64,000 bases of DNA from a virus. Shown here piece after piece: positions 36,082-47,485 of the stretch (positions are counted from its first letter, which is position 1; each line of letters begins with the position of its first letter). A model generated the notes under the pieces. The model worked only from the letters and a program-made list of their open reading frames with translations. It was not told the DNA's origin and searched no databases. Both the position numbers and the translations under genes were made by a program. The DNA lies in the IMG/VR virus record IMGVR_UViG_3300032241_000811, positions 32,001 through 96,000 of that record; one strand, 5' to 3'.

Positions 36082-36975
36082 TCAGAGATTTCCAGTGTGA
36101 TTGGCAATAGAAGGTAGATTACCAGTAAAGGCAAATGTACCAATGTGTTGTGTCTTCATCCATGGGCAAAGCCAAATCTGAAAGCCGATCTTTCGTGCAT
36201 ACTGACAGAACATATAATCTTCTGACAGATACCGATGTGATGCAGTCTTTTCCGCTTCAAGAAGATTGGCAAAGTCTTGCTTGACATTTTCACCAGCAGC
36301 AGCACGAGTCATCAGGCGATACACATCATCAAATGTATAGCCATTGTCAATGACAGTCTCAAAGTATGCATGAATATAGCGAGAGCCGTCAAAGTTTGCT
36401 TGCCCAACATGGTCTGGCTTGTAGTTCAGCTTAGGATATGCTTCCCGGAATTTTTCAAACACCTGGCGCTTGACCATCATGAAACCAGTACCGATTTCCA
36501 TGACTTCAAGTGGCTCAGTAACCTTGAACTGTTTGGTTCCAGGAACTGGATTGAATACATAGTCACCAACAAGCCCATCAAGTTCTCCTGGTGAGATGGC
36601 AGGGTTGCGCACCATTGCTGTAGCGATGTTACGCCAGTTGATTGACTTCTTTGGATATGGTGCACCAATGATGTCCTTGTCAAGGGCGATCAAGGCTAAT
36701 ACATCGTTGGGGTCAAAATGAATGTCTGAGTCGATAAAGAGAAGATGAGTAAACCCAGAGCGGAGAAACTCATCAACAAGATAGTTTCGTGCGCGGGTAA
36801 TCAGGGATTCATTGAAAAGAAACGAGAAGCGGATATCAATACCGTTCTGTATGCACATGCCTTGCAAGTCAAGGCACGATTTCATATAGAGGCCTGCATT
36901 CTGCCCACCATATTGTGGTGTACAGACAAACAGTTTTGCCTTTCTTAGGTCTTCAAGGGATATTTTTAGTTCCAT
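36082..36975 (-). CDS. GT-A-fold glycosyltransferase-like protein
   Basis: ESLITRARN, HLLFIDSDI, GTGFMM, SEDYMFC. Confidence 0.75.
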   Translation of the reverse strand: MELKISLEDLRKAKLFVCTPQYGGQNAGLYMKSCLDLQGMCIQNGIDIRFSFLFNESLITRARNYLVDEFLRSGFTHLLFIDSDIHFDPNDVLALIALDKDIIGAPYPKKSINWRNIATAMVRNPAISPGELDGLVGDYVFNPVPGTKQFKVTEPLEVMEIGTGFMMVKRQVFEKFREAYPKLNYKPDHVGQANFDGSRYIHAYFETVIDNGYTFDDVYRLMTRAAAGENVKQDFANLLEAEKTASHRYLSEDYMFCQYARKIGFQIWLCPWMKTQHIGTFAFTGNLPSIANHTGNL

Positions 36976-37056
36976 ATTATTCACTCCTTACATGATAACA
37001 AAAAGGGACGCTATAGTATATATAGCATCCCTTTTCAAGGTTGTCAAGAATTATTT

Positions 37057-41266: not shown

Positions 41267-42892
41267 TCACGGCTTGTAATATATATATATCGGCTCATAT
41301 TTCAGTTTCATTTTTTTACCCCCTGCTGATGTAACTTCAACACAGTTTTTCATCATACCTTCTGTGACAGAAACTTCTTCTGTTTCTTCACCAAATACAG
41401 TGTTTTTTGTAACAATCTCTTTTTCACCTGTTTCCACAAATCTGTTACCACCGGGCATAGGTGCAAGAGTCATTTTTATTGTCGTGATGTATTTCATTCC
41501 GAGTTCTTTTAGTATATTGCAAGAATCTTCTTCCAAAGAAAGAAGTTTTCCGTCAAGTGCAATGTCAGCAATATTCCAAGCCAAGTATCTATCGTTTCGT
41601 AAATACTCAACTGCGGTTTCCAAAGTGGGTCTTAGAAATCCATCTCGCCAAGAATCATAAGTTGAAAACTTATGGCACGATTGTTCTTTGTCGTCAGAAT
41701 AAACTTCCTTATTGAAATAAGGCGGAGATGTGAAAACAAAATCTAGTTTTCCTTTATATTTTTGAAATTCAGGTTGGGTGCGCATCATTTCAGAACCACA
41801 TTGGTATATTTCATATATATGTGATTTAGGAAATAAACTATTGCTTTCTCTTATATTTTGATTGAAAAAATCTGCTACTTCGTGATACTTTGTTCTTCCT
41901 GTAGTAGTATTATGATCAGTATTAGGATCAGTACCAATATAATGTATTTGTTTTTTATCGTTCATAGCCATTGCACCAATGAGACGGCCTGCCCAGCCTG
42001 CGGAAGGATCCCAAATAATAGCGGTGTCTTGATTCTTGATTGGATTTATAAACTTTTCATATATAAATCTAGCTGTAAGAGGTGGATATTGCACAGCATA
42101 TTGGCAGAACGATACTCTGAAAGCTTTCAAGCCAATAGGGAATACTTTTTGCCCCAACTTGAACCAGCGAATGCTATACTTGTTTGTCTTTGTCTTATCC
42201 ACATTGACCTTGTGCTTTGCAGGCACATCAAAGTCAGCAGTTACAAAGAGGTTCTGTCTCTTAGCAAGTGCTTGATTATAGCCAGTATAGTTACCATCTT
42301 CTTTGACAGGGCAAAGCCAATAACTGTAGCCATAGTTCTCTTCAATGTTGTTCTCGGTGAACCACAAGAAAAAGTTCTCTGGTGTCGTTACTGTATAGTT
42401 TATATTGCCGGCTTGCAGTATCTCACCGACAGAAATAGGTGAGGAATAATGATAGAACGAATCACGTTTGAAGTGTCGCGTTGCATAAGTGACAAAGGTA
42501 TCAAGCAGTGAATCATCTGCAAAGTAGGTATAGATAGACCTTGCTTCACCCTTTGATGAATAAGAGATTCCTGTTTTCATCATAGTTGGAAACCAAGAGT
42601 TCACTGCATTACCAACAATAGATGTATTGCGCACAACATCCTTTTGAACCTCAAGTTCATGAACAGGAAAGGTTGTCATCTCAGTGAAGTTGTCAATGAT
42701 GTCCTTCTTGCTATAGCCTACTCTGGGCGGCAAGCCTTTGTTGTCCCAAAGGTCTACCACCTTCTTGCGCATATCTATGACCCATTGACGGAAATCTGAT
42801 TGACTCATCCACAGCAATTCGTCAAATGTCTTGTTTACCTCGCTGTTGATCAGTTCATCATTTCTACCATAGAACCAGTTCTTCTCAGTCAT
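41267..42892 (-). CDS. Large amino-methyltransferase-fold DNA modification protein
   Basis: WDPSAGWAGRL SAM motif, GTDPN, FTSPPYF. Confidence 0.8.
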   Translation of the reverse strand: MTEKNWFYGRNDELINSEVNKTFDELLWMSQSDFRQWVIDMRKKVVDLWDNKGLPPRVGYSKKDIIDNFTEMTTFPVHELEVQKDVVRNTSIVGNAVNSWFPTMMKTGISYSSKGEARSIYTYFADDSLLDTFVTYATRHFKRDSFYHYSSPISVGEILQAGNINYTVTTPENFFLWFTENNIEENYGYSYWLCPVKEDGNYTGYNQALAKRQNLFVTADFDVPAKHKVNVDKTKTNKYSIRWFKLGQKVFPIGLKAFRVSFCQYAVQYPPLTARFIYEKFINPIKNQDTAIIWDPSAGWAGRLIGAMAMNDKKQIHYIGTDPNTDHNTTTGRTKYHEVADFFNQNIRESNSLFPKSHIYEIYQCGSEMMRTQPEFQKYKGKLDFVFTSPPYFNKEVYSDDKEQSCHKFSTYDSWRDGFLRPTLETAVEYLRNDRYLAWNIADIALDGKLLSLEEDSCNILKELGMKYITTIKMTLAPMPGGNRFVETGEKEIVTKNTVFGEETEEVSVTEGMMKNCVEVTSAGGKKMKLKYEPIYIYYKP

Positions 42893-43886
42893 TTGCTATA
42901 TTTCTTTCCATAAGATTTTCAAATATGTCATAGTATTCATCTGGTGTTTTTACCACACTCAGAAACTTTGTTTTGGCTTCCAAAAGCCTTTGATTGAAGT
43001 TATCACTATACGATATATAGGAAACTTTGTCAACAAAATCTTCATATGAATTGACTCTTTGCCATTCTGAGGAAACAAATATATTGTTGGTGTCGTAGTT
43101 TTGCCACACCAAAGGTATCATATCACAAGCTATTGCTTCAATGTAGCGTGATGTTGTTGCTTCTGGATTCATCCAGTTGAAACATAGTGTGCATTTGGAT
43201 GCTTTCAGTGTGGGTATGATGTTCTTCATCTTTCCCCATTTTTGATTTCTTTCAAAGCCATAGAAGCGCCCAATGAAATAAGACTTGATGTTTTCGTTCT
43301 TGTGTATCTGTTTCAGTATTGTGTGGCGAACATCACCAGATGATTTGCCATCTATTGTCTTTCGCTTATCAGAACCCCAATAGGCAAAGTCGTATGTCTT
43401 TTCGGTATTCTCATATAGCGTCTGTATATTCTTGATGAAGTGGTATTTCATTCCGTGAACATTGCCAAAGTCTATTTCATCAATGACACGATAATCTATA
43501 TCAAGACCAGGAAATACTTTTGTCTGATACAATTCAATGTCATCGCGCCGATCAGATCGTAGAATGATAACTCTCTTGCCGTTGATATACGGCTTTATTT
43601 GTTCAAGCTGGCTGTTTGACCGCTTCAAGTCAAGTGTATGAATGGCACCAGGAATGTGATAAGTAAACTCTGCTTCAGATGGTATAACTATGATGTCTGC
43701 GTTTTTGATTGCTTCTATATTGCGAACGGGCTTCTGGTTGAATCCAAAGTTGTAATGGTAATACTCATGCTCAGTATGCTTCATGACATAACGAAGCATC
43801 AAGGCATAAAACGAATCCATTATGTGGTCAAGTGGTGTGACATAGTTATCACCAGAACGAAGCCTTGCAAAACAGATTTTCATCAT
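42885..43886 (-). CDS. T4 beta-glucosyltransferase-like GT-B protein
   Basis: YDFAYWGS.KR...R, TSRYIEAIACD; motifs parallel T4 BGT. Confidence 0.6.
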   Translation of the reverse strand: MMKICFARLRSGDNYVTPLDHIMDSFYALMLRYVMKHTEHEYYHYNFGFNQKPVRNIEAIKNADIIVIPSEAEFTYHIPGAIHTLDLKRSNSQLEQIKPYINGKRVIILRSDRRDDIELYQTKVFPGLDIDYRVIDEIDFGNVHGMKYHFIKNIQTLYENTEKTYDFAYWGSDKRKTIDGKSSGDVRHTILKQIHKNENIKSYFIGRFYGFERNQKWGKMKNIIPTLKASKCTLCFNWMNPEATTSRYIEAIACDMIPLVWQNYDTNNIFVSSEWQRVNSYEDFVDKVSYISYSDNFNQRLLEAKTKFLSVVKTPDEYYDIFENLMERNIAND

Positions 43887-44674
43887 GCTCCTACATTCCA
43901 AAATAGACAAGTATCGCCAGACTTGCCGTAAATACTTTGATAATCTTTCATTATGTGCCAAGCCTTTGCATCATATGTGGGCGCAGAAGGAAACGGAGGC
44001 ACATGTTCTTTTTTTACAGGCTTATCAAACTTGTAGGGAGACTTATGATAATACGCCCTACCTATATCTTCTTCTTTCATTGTATGCCCTACAGAAACTA
44101 CATGTACCATAGCCTTTGGAAATGCAAGCTGCAATGATCTTGTAAGTGTGCCTGATGAACCTACTGACCATACTTCTGTTGGTTCAATAGGCAATGATCT
44201 TGCAACTTTGATAAGACAACCAATAGCAGTATCATGTCTGACACCAATCGGCACTAACAGTTTGTTATCAGGGTCCTCTGCTACATAATCTCTTGCGCGT
44301 TTTTCAGTAACAGGAAGCATACCCATCTTGACCCAGCGCATATCTGCACCAAGTTCTATTGCTTTCTTCTGATATGGATGAAGCTTATCCATAGACCTTT
44401 CAGCCATGAATATGACAGCTTTCTTGCCATACTTGGAGCAGACATAGGGCAATGACATCTGTGCATAGCCGGTTGCTGGTGATGATCCATAAACGATTTC
44501 ATTTTGCTTTGCATTGCGTATCAGATAATCAGCAGCGCGAGCCTTTGAACCTACTTCAAGCATATCATCACGAACAACATGGATACCTTCGTGTTCAACA
44601 ATAACAGGTGGGGGATTTGGGTCTTGCCAATCACCGATCAAATCTAGATAATAATCCGCTGTGTTGAAAAACAT
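43883..44674 (-). CDS. Fold-type II PLP-dependent enzyme
   Basis: VVRDD....GSKAR, SVGSSGTL, PTYDAKAW, LFWNVG. Confidence 0.8.
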   Translation of the reverse strand: MFFNTADYYLDLIGDWQDPNPPPVIVEHEGIHVVRDDMLEVGSKARAADYLIRNAKQNEIVYGSSPATGYAQMSLPYVCSKYGKKAVIFMAERSMDKLHPYQKKAIELGADMRWVKMGMLPVTEKRARDYVAEDPDNKLLVPIGVRHDTAIGCLIKVARSLPIEPTEVWSVGSSGTLTRSLQLAFPKAMVHVVSVGHTMKEEDIGRAYYHKSPYKFDKPVKKEHVPPFPSAPTYDAKAWHIMKDYQSIYGKSGDTCLFWNVGA

Positions 44675-44675
44675 A

Positions 44676-46391
44676 CTATGTTACTAACCTGCTGAAATTT
44701 TGAACCTTCTCAAAACGATATACACGATCAAACTTGTCTACAAGCTGATCGGTCTTGTGTGATATAATAAACGTATTTGTTCCGTCTGTCAAGTCTTTTA
44801 TGATCTTGAGGAACTCATCTGTGCCATTTGCATCCAAGGAGCCATCAAGTATTTCATCAAGCAAAAGCAGATTGGTGTTTACTGAGTTTTTGAGTTTTGC
44901 AATATGACGCCAAGTGAATAGCAAAGCAAGGTCAATCCTTGTTTTCTCGCCTTCGGAAAAGTTGGCATAGCTAAACTCATCACGGTATCTGGACTTGATT
45001 ACTTCCTCAAAGTTCTCATTCACATTGAAATTGACAAAGAACCCCATCTGCGACAGGTATTTGTTGACAACTTTGTTGATGATCGGAATGTATTGCTTGA
45101 TGATCTTTGTCTTGATGCCACCATCTTTGAGTAACTGTGTGGCCACATCAATCATTTGTTTGTTGAGCAGGAAGTTGTTCTTTGCTCTTTCCTTTGCTGC
45201 AATCTCATTCTCGGTTGTAGCCAGTTCTTTTTCGTTCTCTTGAATGAGTGTGTCTGAGTTCTTGATCTTGTCTATAGCATCCTCAGTATCATTTATGGAT
45301 GAAACCAAGTGCATCATCATGGACTTGTTCTTGCTGATTTCAGTATTGATATTCTGAATGCGCTTCACATACTTTTCTTTTTCGGTTATGCTGCTAAGTA
45401 GCGCATTGCTGTCAATCTCTTTAGCTTGTGCTTCTACACATTGCTTACTAATCTCTTCTGCAAGTTCAAGCACTCTCTTTGATTTGAAGTTTGCATCTAT
45501 GGTTTGCTTGCATGTTGGGCATGTTTCTGAATGCTTGATGAAGTCTTTTTCTACATCAAGTCTCTTTGTATCTGCATCAAGAGTAGCAACATACTTTATC
45601 ATCTGCTCATACCGTTTCTTGTCATCATCAAGGTTCAACACCTTGTTGACTAACTGTTCCTTTTCATCAATTATGATTTGCACAGCAGCAAGCAATGTCT
45701 TTTTTTGCTCATTCAGTGATGCAAGCTGTTCTTCAAGATCCTTGAGTTTGTCCTCATTGTTCTTGCGCAGGCTTGTCAAAGTCTTTTCAATGAACTTCTT
45801 CTTTTCTTCTCTTGAACCCAGTTCAATGCGGTTGCGCTCAATCAAGTCCTTGTTCTCTTGAAACCTCTGCTTCATCAATAGAGACATCACTGAAAAGATT
45901 TGAATGTCAAGCAAATCTTCAATAATGGTTCTTCTGTCAGCAGGCGACAATTGCATGAAAGGCACAAATGATGCAGAACCCAATATGACGATCTGTGAGA
46001 ATGACTTCATGTTCATCTTGAGGATATATTTCTCAAGGTATTCCTGATAGTCTTTTGAAGCTGAGTCCTGGTTCAATAACTCATCATCAACATAGATTTC
46101 AAATATGTTGGGCTTGATGCCACGAATGATCTTGTATTGCTTGCCATGTGTTTCAAACTCAATCTCAACAACACAGTCTTTGTTGTTCACACTATTGACT
46201 AATGCAGGCTTATTGATCTTGCGAAACGGCTTGCCAAACAAAACAAAAGTCAGAGCATCAAGTATGGTTGACTTACCATGCCCGTTGGCTCCAACTATAA
46301 ATGATGTTTGTGCTTTGTTTAGTTCTATCTCGGTAAAAGCATTACCGGTAGATAAAAAATTCTTCCATCTAATAACTTTGAGTACAATCAT
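44676..46391 (-). CDS. 46: Recombination nuclease ATPase subunit (gp46, Rad50-like)
   Basis: GANGHGKST, CPTC zinc hook, FSEGEK, LLDEILD. Confidence 0.97.
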   Translation of the reverse strand: MIVLKVIRWKNFLSTGNAFTEIELNKAQTSFIVGANGHGKSTILDALTFVLFGKPFRKINKPALVNSVNNKDCVVEIEFETHGKQYKIIRGIKPNIFEIYVDDELLNQDSASKDYQEYLEKYILKMNMKSFSQIVILGSASFVPFMQLSPADRRTIIEDLLDIQIFSVMSLLMKQRFQENKDLIERNRIELGSREEKKKFIEKTLTSLRKNNEDKLKDLEEQLASLNEQKKTLLAAVQIIIDEKEQLVNKVLNLDDDKKRYEQMIKYVATLDADTKRLDVEKDFIKHSETCPTCKQTIDANFKSKRVLELAEEISKQCVEAQAKEIDSNALLSSITEKEKYVKRIQNINTEISKNKSMMMHLVSSINDTEDAIDKIKNSDTLIQENEKELATTENEIAAKERAKNNFLLNKQMIDVATQLLKDGGIKTKIIKQYIPIINKVVNKYLSQMGFFVNFNVNENFEEVIKSRYRDEFSYANFSEGEKTRIDLALLFTWRHIAKLKNSVNTNLLLLDEILDGSLDANGTDEFLKIIKDLTDGTNTFIISHKTDQLVDKFDRVYRFEKVQNFSRLVT

Positions 46392-46405: not shown

Positions 46406-47485
46406 TTAGTCTATCTGTTCAAGTGACAATGCTTCCTGATAGACTTCTCGCATGTAAATTTTCATCTTATCACTTTCCACAGGCAATGTCAAGCCCTCAA
46501 TATAGGAATCAAGTATTGTCACCGTGTCTTGTGCTTCATCCACAAACTCTTCTGTTTTGGTATCAGTAAACAATGAAGCATCTTCAACAACAGATATATC
46601 TGCTGGTGACTCTTTATATAGCTTGTCCATGAGCATGTCAAAGGCAAATGGGTTTGACTTGTTGACACACACAATCTTCACATAGCAATCTTTATACTTG
46701 GAATAATCAGTCTCGTTTATTGTTTCTATGATGTCAGTATTCTTGACATCATCATAAGCAAGCATATGAAAAATACGGAAAGGATTGCGGACAAAATCGA
46801 TTGTATTAGATACGGTATCGTATATTGAGAAGCCACGAGAATCGTTATGGTCTGACCAAACATGCTCGCCAAAAGCACCCACATAATGAATGTTATCACG
46901 GACAGACCTATGGTGATAATGCCCTGTAAAAACATAGTCAAACCTCTGATACATTTTGTGATTAGAGCCATGATCTGATAATAATCCTTTCTGCATTTCA
47001 AAACCATCCAACTCAAGATGAGCGCAGCATATTCTTGCTTTTGACTGCTCCATCGCTTCATAAGACGCAAGTTCGTTTGCTTTGGTGATCCAAGGCAATA
47101 GAAAGAACTGGCAGCCATCTATCTCAATATGCTGTGGTGTAGAATAGACATTGATGTTCTTATAGCGATTGCCTACAAACTCTTCAAGCGCATTTACCTT
47201 GTAAGTGTCTTTATAGTATTCATCATGATTGCCTGCGATGATGTGCATCATGCAAAGATCATTCAAAGGCTCAAGGAAGTCTTCACGCAGCCTAGCATGA
47301 GTCAAGACATTGATATACTTTCTGCGGTCAACAAGGTCGCCCAGATGTATGATGTGCTTGATGCCATGCTCACGTATATAAGGTAGGAAAAACTCATTCA
47401 TTGACTTCTTGAAGTAATCAAGAAATACGGGGCTGTCATTTCTGACGCCCCAATGAGTATCAGCGATTATTGCAATCTTTGTCAT
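46406..47485 (-). CDS. 47: Recombination nuclease subunit (gp47, Mre11-like)
   Basis: DTHWG, HLGDLVDRRK, GNHD, GHYH. Confidence 0.96.
   Translation of the reverse strand: MTKIAIIADTHWGVRNDSPVFLDYFKKSMNEFFLPYIREHGIKHIIHLGDLVDRRKYINVLTHARLREDFLEPLNDLCMMHIIAGNHDEYYKDTYKVNALEEFVGNRYKNINVYSTPQHIEIDGCQFFLLPWITKANELASYEAMEQSKARICCAHLELDGFEMQKGLLSDHGSNHKMYQRFDYVFTGHYHHRSVRDNIHYVGAFGEHVWSDHNDSRGFSIYDTVSNTIDFVRNPFRIFHMLAYDDVKNTDIIETINETDYSKYKDCYVKIVCVNKSNPFAFDMLMDKLYKESPADISVVEDASLFTDTKTEEFVDEAQDTVTILDSYIEGLTLPVESDKMKIYMREVYQEALSLEQID

Follow-up and report, generated by a model that had tools for sequence, protein, structure and literature searches.

To our knowledge, every amino-acid-derived DNA hypermodification described so far starts from a hydroxymethyl-pyrimidine that is produced ahead of replication. 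An uncultured ocean T4-like phage, represented by a record of 109.6 kb that is 63% complete, carries downstream of gp47/gp46 three intact and overlapping minus-strand genes for a PLP-dependent enzyme (PLP), a glycosyltransferase (GT) and a SAM-dependent enzyme with an SPPY motif (MT). The locus, contained in the 64,000-nucleotide stretch analyzed here (the window), raises the question of whether these proteins constitute one DNA modification pathway, as proposed in an initial annotation of the sequence, and which of them would install the modified group. In this work, we addressed this question by profile, structure and motif comparisons of the three proteins, and by surveying their gene contexts.

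Locus organization and gene coupling

The locus is read on the minus strand from gp47, an SbcD-like subunit (46406-47485; phrog_100, E 5e-92), into gp46, an SbcC-like recombination nuclease subunit (44676-46391; phrog_77, E 7e-159). These are followed by the PLP-dependent enzyme (43883-44674; 263 aa), assigned as a truncated PALP (fold-type II) member of the M6 gp52 / ViI gp226 family, by the GT-B glycosyltransferase (42885-43886; 333 aa counted from the ATG, the ORF list using an upstream TTG at 43961), and by the SAM-dependent amino-alkyltransferase-like enzyme (41267-42892; 541 aa), whose motif I precedes TSPPYF. PLP, GT and MT are translationally coupled to gp46: the gp46 stop codon TAG (44678-44676) is separated by a single T from the PLP ATG (44674), ATGA (43886-43883) comprises both the stop of PLP and the start of GT, and the stop of GT overlaps the start of MT within ATGACTGA (42892-42885). 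The three ORFs and their junctions are placed as initially annotated. A sigma-70-like promoter candidate (TTGACA-17-TATTAT, 11 of 12; 44764-44792, minus strand) lies in the 3'-terminal part of gp46, some 90 nt upstream of the PLP start; such matches numbered 28 in the region against a shuffled expectation of 22.7 ± 5.1, with no excess, and a terminator scan of the region did not rise above the shuffled background.

The anchor order, with gp47 and gp46 followed by the module, is conserved in most related loci, and the interval between gp46 and gp45 houses many different inserts across loci. The position of GT recalls that of T4 alpha-gt, which had been cited as a neighbor of genes 46/47 and adjoins gene 47.

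The PLP-dependent enzyme

The PLP protein matches phrog_7093 over residues 28-263 (E 1.3e-42), and scores 17.6 bits against Pfam PALP, under the cut-off. Its Schiff-base lysine Lys44 (GSKAR) and phosphate-binding loop GSSGT (G172-T176) are invariant in 23 homologues, and both align by hhalign (97.8%, E 8.8e-13, 229 columns) with PAE1 Orf44, an M6 gp52 orthologue that adjoins a radical-SAM gene. Members of the M6 gp52 family decarboxylate amino acids attached to DNA (Lee et al., PMC8989533). By these alignments, the protein is a full-length homologue of this family of DNA-amino-acid decarboxylases, and its predicted activity is the decarboxylation of an amino-acid side chain carried by DNA. When PLP and MT were searched against PDB sequences, with single sequences as well as profiles, nothing useful was returned, and NCBIfam contained no model for PLP, GT or MT. 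The searches for homologues retrieved 765 protein clusters for PLP, 533 for GT and 1379 for MT, nearly all of them from marine and freshwater metagenomes.

The glycosyltransferase and its acceptor

The AlphaFold model of GT (pLDDT 93) was compared with solved structures by two methods. Foldseek, a check suggested in the initial annotation, placed T4 beta-glucosyltransferase (BGT) at ranks 1-5 (top E 6.5e-9), followed by T4 AGT; in VIA, BGT reached Z 19.5 (rmsd 3.8, 289 residues aligned), AGT reached 16.3, and the remaining GT-B enzymes 15.4 or less. BGT (PDB 1bgt, 1c3j, 1j39) is the best whole-length structural match, at only about 14-15% identity, and was the sole PDB match of the GT family profile (E 5.6e-4). 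Residues S171, K173, R246 and E249 of GT align with S189, R191, R269 and E272 of BGT, the nucleotide-sugar binding residues of that enzyme; the corresponding Arg/Glu pair is conserved, with K173, R246 and E249 invariant in 26 homologues. The catalytic base of the BGT acceptor domain is Asp100, and the sequence alignments of GT with BGT cover the C-terminal domain only. The closest solved relative of GT is the T4 DNA beta-glucosyltransferase.

The GT family is widespread without PLP or MT, as in Pelagibacter phage HTVC008M, where a homologue (46%) adjoins gp46. It is also found in other DNA-modification settings, namely next to CmoA and a C5-methylase homologue (locus L122), and next to TAGT. 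Gene 42 of T4 makes hydroxymethylcytosine, whereas no counterpart was found in the source record: the ThyA/hydroxymethylase family (PF00303) had no member in the 109.6 kb (63% complete), so that the lack of a gp42 hydroxymethylase, first reported for the window, extends to the whole of this incomplete record. Likewise, a relative that is 100% complete and carries this cassette lacked the family, and no 5-hmdU DNA kinase or aGPT-Pplase-type transferase was present among the ORFs scanned around the cassette. Since no hydroxymethylase-family gene was found, the GT acceptor would probably differ from hydroxymethylcytosine.

The SAM-dependent enzyme

MT consists of an N-terminal domain (about residues 1-270) and a class I methyltransferase domain of gamma type, in which motif I is DPSAGWAGR (295-303) and motif IV is FTSPPYF (387-393). 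Both motifs are invariant in 32 homologues, and the catalytic motifs are identical across all gene architectures. MT thereby shares the SAM-binding motifs and SPPY of the N6/N4 DNA amino-methyltransferases (PF01555, gamma-class), but differs from them by a sub-cut-off score against Pfam N6_N4_Mtase (20.6 bits vs 26.7, over model positions 2-90 only) and by its 270-residue N-terminal domain, which matched only viral hypothetical clusters in the ESM Atlas; a precomputed PF01555 call accompanies about half of the listed MT homologues. The MT model (pLDDT 86) found only generic class I methyltransferases in Foldseek, and its best VIA matches were aTrm11 (Z 15.7), TrmN (15.6), lmo1582, METTL5 and PrmC. 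Its nearest solved structures are tRNA m2G methyltransferases and not DNA enzymes, which counts against the pathway proposed below. The MT sequence displayed no feature separating transfer of the 3-amino-3-carboxypropyl (acp) group of SAM from methyl transfer. As a whole, profiles, structures and motifs bear out the initial identification of the three proteins as a fold-type II PLP enzyme, a BGT-like GT and an SPPY-type SAM enzyme.

Co-occurrence, fusions and module structure

Gene contexts were taken from IMG/VR loci. Among distinct PLP loci followed by 2.5 kb of sequence or more, 31 of 39 contain MT, and three of five exceptions checked carry it elsewhere on the same incomplete contig; at the genome level, PLP almost always depends on MT. 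Conversely, PLP is missing from 26 of 48 MT loci, and two complete or near-complete genomes (positive control run) contain MT and no PLP, which rules out strict co-dependence of the two. Of the distinct PLP loci for which both flanks were available, only 7 of 45 contained GT. The commonest third partner was a hydroxylase of AspH type, weakly similar to amino-acid hydroxylases. GT and the hydroxylase are nearly mutually exclusive, as PLP loci carried GT only (6), the hydroxylase only (26) or both (1); one locus, L068, has the order MT-hydroxylase-PLP-GT. The hydroxylase is absent from the window and from the complete relative with the same cassette, and a Tet_JBP search, run without a positive control, gave no match.

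Fusions link the same domains. An N6_N4/Eco57I-type MT domain is present in 13 of the 20 fused PLP-domain proteins scanned, in both domain orders and from two different MT classes; two of the 20 are MT-hydroxylase-PLP triples, one holds ParB_N, and none has a GT domain. Among named phages, gp1 of Erythrobacter phage R6L is an MT-PALP fusion, and the MT and PLP genes are adjacent in Microcystis phage Mae-JY30. Given this recurrence in dozens of distinct loci together with the domain fusions, the association is far beyond chance. Cultured phages gave no megablast match to the cassette, and the PLP-GT-MT module is missing from all cultured phages of the phage collection.

MT occurs with no partner, or with the AspH-like hydroxylase, PLP, GT, or combinations of these, pairs of MT and hydroxylase without PLP included. 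MT is the hub of the module, and GT is an accessory member, whose minority status rules out a single fixed three-gene operon. Of the co-occurrence expected in the initial annotation, the link between PLP and MT was found in loci and fusions alike, but the notion of the trio as one cassette had to be abandoned.

Proposed pathway

We propose that PLP, GT and MT act in a single pathway of post-replicative DNA base hypermodification, centered on MT, a reading to which we assign a probability of about one half. The pathway would comprise three steps. MT would bind SAM, and an exocyclic base amine would attack it, as with (D/N/S)PPY enzymes; the SPPY variant points to cytosine N4, adenine N6 being possible. 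The group transferred would be acp and not methyl, so that the base would acquire an alpha-amino-acid side chain and methylthioadenosine would be released. PLP would then form a Schiff base with the alpha-amine and remove CO2, like M6 gp52 and ViI gp226, the product being a cationic 3-aminopropyl group. Finally, the BGT-like GT may use a nucleotide-sugar to glycosylate the side chain or a site close to it, an optional decoration of this phage lineage; the sugar could perhaps come from the phage sugar operon, as suggested in the initial annotation. The pathway would probably serve to shield phage DNA from host nucleases.

MT is placed first, with the other enzymes tailoring its product, because MT without PLP exists and its motifs are the same everywhere. 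Homology of PLP to proven DNA-amino-acid decarboxylases implies that its substrate would be an alpha-amino acid attached to the polymer, and SAM is the only evident amino-acid source that a methyltransferase-fold enzyme could deliver; an amino-acid-like side chain is also indicated by the AspH-type hydroxylase being the commonest third partner. Transfer of acp followed by decarboxylation, one of the options in the initial annotation, would therefore be the simplest chemistry fitting the linkage of PLP and MT, whereas the glycosylation step there attached to it belongs to an inconstant member. Against the pathway, GT would meet no obvious hydroxyl acceptor in the source lineage, where the hydroxylase is absent and an aminopropyl group offers an amine only. 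Further points against it are the frequency of the GT family in the absence of PLP and MT, the lack of a GT domain in the 20 fused proteins, the sub-cut-off Pfam scores of PLP and MT from the window, an MT sequence that accommodates methyl and acp transfer alike, and the absence of the module from the cultured phages of the collection.

Alternative explanations

MT could instead be an ordinary orphan N4-cytosine/N6-adenine methyltransferase with an anti-restriction role, PLP and GT having unrelated functions and simply lying in the same variable region downstream of gp46. In keeping with this are the SPPY motif and the partial matches to N6_N4_Mtase, as well as the occurrence of GT alone in many phages and the diversity of inserts between gp46 and gp45; further, MT alone behind gp46 in complete genomes fits a plain methylase equally well, and in this respect tells against our proposal. 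We nonetheless regard this explanation as unlikely, as PLP is almost never found without MT, the two types of domain are fused in 13 of 20 proteins regardless of domain order and MT class, and the PLP family acts on DNA adducts and cannot take a methyl group as substrate. Plain methylation would leave the coupled or fused PLP enzyme with no role, and this coupling argues for a transferred group other than methyl.

Alternatively, the module may target protein or RNA (tRNA or rRNA), the latter for example through a modification of acp type or N2-guanine type. The structural neighbors of MT lend themselves to this reading, as they include enzymes for tRNA m2G (aTrm11, TrmN, Trm14), rRNA m6A (METTL5) and protein (PrmC). 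So does the fact that all natural transfers of acp from SAM to nucleic acid known to us are on RNA (acp3U, m1acp3-pseudouridine, wybutosine). TYW2/Taw2 (wybutosine), Tsr3 and TapT are SAM-dependent acp transferases of RNA, TYW2, with its methyltransferase-type fold, being a precedent for the delivery of acp from SAM to a nucleobase; they differ from the present module in their RNA substrates, in their motifs and in the lack of a subsequent decarboxylation, and none of them matched MT in sequence or structure among the matches listed. In Z-score, the RNA enzymes stand no more than about 1-2 units above methyltransferases unrelated to them. Moreover, GT is closest to the two T4 DNA glucosyltransferases, the PLP family works on polymer DNA, ParB_N and DNA methylase domains of the beta class and of Eco57I type occur among the fusion partners, and the module is coupled to recombination nuclease genes. 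We hence give little credence to an RNA or protein target.

A reversed order, in which PLP decarboxylates SAM and MT then transfers aminopropyl, would lead to the same final product. Spermidine synthases have a methyltransferase-like fold and use decarboxylated SAM, a precedent for such an order, and the PLP-MT domain fusions would suit cofactor channelling. This order seems quite improbable in view of the MT genes with identical motifs in complete genomes with no PLP gene, the pairs of hydroxylase and MT without PLP, and the DNA-bound amino acids that are the proven substrates of the PLP family. Lastly, it is very improbable that MT methylates a base amine whose methyl is oxidized to N-hydroxymethyl and glycosylated like hydroxymethylcytosine, PLP being peripheral: the frequent pairing of MT with a 2OG-type hydroxylase, the likeness of GT to an enzyme glucosylating a hydroxymethyl group, and locus L068 would accord with it, but the window and its complete relative have the cassette without hydroxylase, GT and hydroxylase rarely meet, and PLP would be left without a substrate, yet is fused to both MT and hydroxylase.

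Comparison with known systems

The MT-centered pathway resembles the thymidine hypermodification of phages M6 and ViI (Lee et al., NAR 2021/22, PMC8989533), which is likewise post-replicative, with combinatorial tailoring of an amino-acid side chain on the base by accessory enzymes swapped between lineages, among them M6 gp52, the PLP homologue. It differs in that no dUMP/dCMP hydroxymethylase-family gene was found with the present module, and in that the presumed side-chain installer is a SAM-dependent (S)PPY enzyme of methyltransferase fold; the attacked atom is therefore probably a base amine and not the pyrimidine C5.

A second point of comparison is the 5-carboxymethylcytosine of Synechococcus phage S-B43, where CmoX, a C5-cytosine enzyme, uses carboxy-SAM made by CmoA (PMC12783734). 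In that system, as proposed here, a methyltransferase fold puts a non-methyl group on phage DNA for subsequent tailoring, and homologues of CmoA and of a C5-methylase also neighbor the GT family of the window, at L122. In contrast, MT is of the amino-type (S)PPY class, no cofactor-making gene was seen at this locus, and tailoring depends on an ATP-dependent ligase in S-B43 and would depend on a PLP-dependent enzyme here. The literature yielded no description of acp or aminopropyl DNA or of a PLP-methyltransferase module, and nothing related was found in the literature on YunG.

Significance

It is possible, and we suggest it tentatively, that these ocean T4-like phages hold the first natural acp/aminopropyl DNA modification, transferred straight from SAM to a base amine by the methyltransferase-fold enzyme, and tailored by differing combinations of PLP, hydroxylase and GT. 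If true, the module, which is built around a SAM enzyme and comes without a hydroxymethylase-family gene, would be a new entry to DNA hypermodification and might represent a novel use of SAM on DNA. Amino-acid-derived DNA hypermodification would then have a second route, independent of hydroxymethyl groups, with over a thousand metagenomic gene variants. If real, the modification could influence the evasion of host defences in major ocean phage groups, as well as the sequencing, cutting and amplification of phage DNA in metagenomics.

Gene layout around gp47 and gp46

The source phage is a T4-like myophage, and the virus record around the window spans 109.6 kb, with an IMG/VR completeness estimate of 63%. 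The genes gp47 (46406-47485; SbcD PHROG match, E 5e-92) and gp46 (44676-46391; SbcC PHROG match, E 7e-159) are followed by cobS and a large peptidase gene, as is likewise the case in Pelagibacter phage HTVC008M and cyanomyophages. Since the best gp46 matches in the cultured-phage collection (Methylophilales, Sinorhizobium and Synechococcus phages) reached only about 46% identity, a close cultured relative is absent from that collection. A 300-aa protein with a weak Anp1 mannosyltransferase-like match (phrog_1574; 36082-36984, minus strand) is also encoded in the window, and its gene keeps its place behind cobS in the majority of related loci.

The three genes named in the initial annotation were all recovered on the minus strand with uninterrupted reading frames, encoding a PLP-dependent enzyme (PLP; 43883-44674, 263 aa), a glycosyltransferase (GT; 42885-43886, 333 aa counted from the ATG, the mechanical ORF starting at an upstream TTG) and a methyltransferase-fold SAM enzyme (MT; 41267-42892, 541 aa). 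Their junctions proved as tight as described: a single base separates the gp46 TAG stop from the PLP ATG, PLP and GT overlap by ATGA, and GT and MT by ATGACTGA. Two putative sigma-70-like sites (each 11/12, minus strand) lie within the gp46 3' end just upstream of the PLP start (44764-44792) and within the GT 3' end just upstream of the MT start (43005-43033); no excess of such sites was found across the whole region.

Composition of the module across related loci

A PLP profile scan of IMG/VR returned 340 loci, the best 80 of which comprised 59 distinct PLP sequences. MT was present, usually immediately downstream of PLP, in 31 of the 39 distinct loci among these 80 having at least 2.5 kb downstream; of five loci lacking a local MT that were searched contig-wide, three carried it elsewhere, the remaining two contigs being 47% and 4% complete. 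Conversely, among the 48 distinct MT loci whose upstream flank reached 3 kb or more, PLP was found in 22 and was absent from 26, the latter arranged as gp47-gp46-MT or gp47-gp46-HYD-MT, where HYD is an AspH-like hydroxylase. No PLP homologue was detected anywhere in two such PLP-less genomes (one 100% complete with terminal repeats, the other 95% complete), by a genome-wide search that recovered PLP in three positive controls. PLP is thus dependent on MT and MT independent of PLP, which would place MT first in the proposed pathway.

In 45 PLP loci with both flanks (from the best 80 of 340), 26 had as third gene an AspH-like 2OG hydroxylase immediately 5' of PLP, six a BGT-like GT and four a different 457-aa GT-B enzyme; hydroxylase and GT occurred together once (L068: MT-HYD-PLP-GT), and eight loci had no third gene. 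The cassette originally proposed therefore holds as an arrangement, with the PLP-GT-MT order repeated in L004-L016 (62-81% protein identity) and in more distant lineages (L098-L114, L163), some with a 355-420-aa MT, but not as the usual composition, the BGT-like GT being found in only seven of the 45. The AspH-like protein (Asp_Arg_Hydrox, cupin; ~380 aa; L039:6517-7674, L069:1193-2320, L068:1467-2759 and ~45 other related loci) lies directly upstream of PLP, or of MT in loci without PLP; more often than any other protein it makes up the third member, it hardly ever co-occurs with the BGT-like GT, and the window lacks it. In L045:8777-10150, L065:8071-10432 and L070:4832-6217, the end of the PLP gene is overlapped by the other GT-B enzyme, which is longer (457-461 aa) and is followed in L065 by an NAD-dependent sugar epimerase/dehydratase; MT lies elsewhere on these contigs.

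When 1.84 billion representatives were searched in full with HMMER, the PLP profile matched 1356 proteins, many far longer than 260 aa. Twenty long ones were scanned: in 13 a methylase domain of N6_N4 or Eco57I type lay before or after the PLP domain, two were MT-hydroxylase-PLP triple fusions (1081 and 1138 aa), and others were hydroxylase-YunG-PLP (one), YunG-PLP (three) and PLP-ParB_N (one), with no GT domain in any of the 20. In Erythrobacter phage R6L, gp1 combines a beta-class methylase and PALP in one protein. With two methylase classes and both domain orders represented, the fusions argue strongly for a single pathway in which MT, hydroxylase and PLP all act; they count against the rival view of a plain methylase with unrelated neighbouring genes, which the PLP-less layouts favour. 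Proteins P0366 and P0376 join an AspH-like domain to MT and PLP. A YunG-family domain (PF24585) is repeatedly fused or adjacent to PLP (P0369, P0389, P0399, P0498, L075), its gene lying between thyX and PLP in L075:7565-7996.

Characterization of the encoded proteins

The PLP protein matched phrog_7093 (E 1.3e-42) and, weakly, Pfam PALP (17.6 bits). Across 23 homologues, K44 (the Schiff-base lysine, GSKAR), the phosphate loop GSSGT and the C-terminal signature PPFPSAPTYDAKAW...LFWNVGA were invariant. By tblastn, identity was 25% to Yuavirus phages and 41-43% to phage R6L and Microcystis phage Mae-JY30. The homologue PAE1 Orf44 adjoins a spore-photoproduct-lyase-like radical SAM gene and is therefore the orthologue of M6 gp52; profile comparison aligned the window's family with Orf44 over 229 columns (97.8% probability, E 8.8e-13), taking in the lysine, the SSGT loop and the C-terminal signature. 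Purified M6 gp52 decarboxylates C-alpha-glycinyl-thymidine, and ViI gp226 O-serinyl-thymidine, in polymer DNA (Lee et al., PMC8989533).

MT carries motif I DPSAGWAGR (295-303), a GTD motif II, a GSE motif III and FTSPPYF (387-393), with motif I ahead of motif IV in the gamma arrangement. These motifs were invariant in 32 homologues, at identities down to 38%, and identical across MT-only, HYD-MT, PLP-MT, HYD-PLP-MT and PLP-GT-MT genomes; the Pfam N6_N4_Mtase match was partial and under cut-off. The structures closest to the MT model (pLDDT 86) were the amino-methyltransferases aTrm11 (Z 15.7), TrmN (15.6), Trm14, lmo1582, METTL5 and PrmC, by a small margin over unrelated methyltransferases. 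Residues 1-270 are well conserved, with matches confined to uncharacterised viral proteins. Shortened MTs of 355-420 aa, with PLP and GT still as neighbours, occur in L104:8980-10047, L110:8980-10074 and L163:5969-7231; as they lack most of this virus-only domain, it is dispensable in some lineages.

The GT sequence alone matched T4 beta-glucosyltransferase (BGT) in the PDB at E 0.015, and its family profile (26 members) did so at E 5.6e-4, with no other PDB match. For its AlphaFold model (pLDDT 93), Foldseek ranked BGT entries first to fifth (E 6.5e-9) and T4 alpha-glucosyltransferase (AGT) next, and an independent structure search again placed BGT first (Z 19.5, 289 residues, rmsd 3.8), ahead of AGT (Z 16.3) and other GT-B enzymes (<=15.4), bearing out the BGT-like assignment. 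R246/E249 align with BGT R269/E272, and S171/K173 with S189/R191; these BGT residues contact UDP.

The GT family is wider than the module: of 80 GT loci, the majority lack both PLP and MT, as does phage HTVC008M, which encodes a family member. In L122 (6074-9008), GT directly follows homologues of a C5-cytosine methylase and of the carboxy-SAM synthase CmoA (TIGR00740, E 1.5e-36) and precedes a RecA/UvsX gene, an arrangement resembling the published CmoA/CmoX carboxymethylcytosine system with an added glycosyltransferase, in a position matching that of T4 beta-gt near uvsX. In L116 (8001-9756), it overlaps a TET-associated glycosyltransferase gene (PF20691), with a DruA-like protein upstream; this pair could perform a two-sugar DNA decoration. 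From these neighbours, the GT family therefore keeps company with DNA-modifying enzymes outside the module too.

Proposed modification pathway

The record encodes ThyX outside the window (G000:C1:16423-16998, E 7.8e-45), and no ThyA/hydroxymethylase family member was found in its 109.6 kb (63% complete), implying ordinary thymidylate synthesis. PF00303 was likewise not found in a 100%-complete relative of 174.5 kb carrying the PLP-GT-MT cassette; the usual hydroxymethyl-pyrimidine route therefore appears to be missing, in agreement with the gp42 hydroxymethylase absence reported for the window. Regarding hydroxylases, neither AspH-like nor common 2OG-oxygenase families were matched in the record (63% complete), and the relative gave only a weak 62-residue cupin match.

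The PLP family would need an alpha-amino acid on the polymer, and the only one that a SAM enzyme could supply would be the 3-amino-3-carboxypropyl (acp) group of SAM. TYW2, of related fold, transfers this group onto RNA. Decarboxylation by PLP would then leave a cationic aminopropyl group, comparable in function to the side chains of aminoethyl and putrescinyl thymidines. An amino-acid-like side chain suits the AspH-type partner, given its weak similarity to amino-acid hydroxylases. Among the rival readings, the module may instead target RNA or protein, and two more invoke other chemistries: PLP may act on SAM first, or an N-methyl group may be oxidized and then glycosylated.

The GT step is the weak point in the window's lineage, where, without the hydroxylase, an evident hydroxyl acceptor is missing. 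For this reason, we assign a probability of roughly 0.7 to a single MT-centred DNA modification pathway, and regard acp transfer followed by decarboxylation, though the best single reading of the chemistry, as tentative and less likely than not. None of the cultured phages in the collection carries the module, and our literature search returned no paper on it, nor on any acp or aminopropyl DNA base. If true, the proposed chemistry would be of a new kind, beyond the known phage DNA hypermodification clusters.
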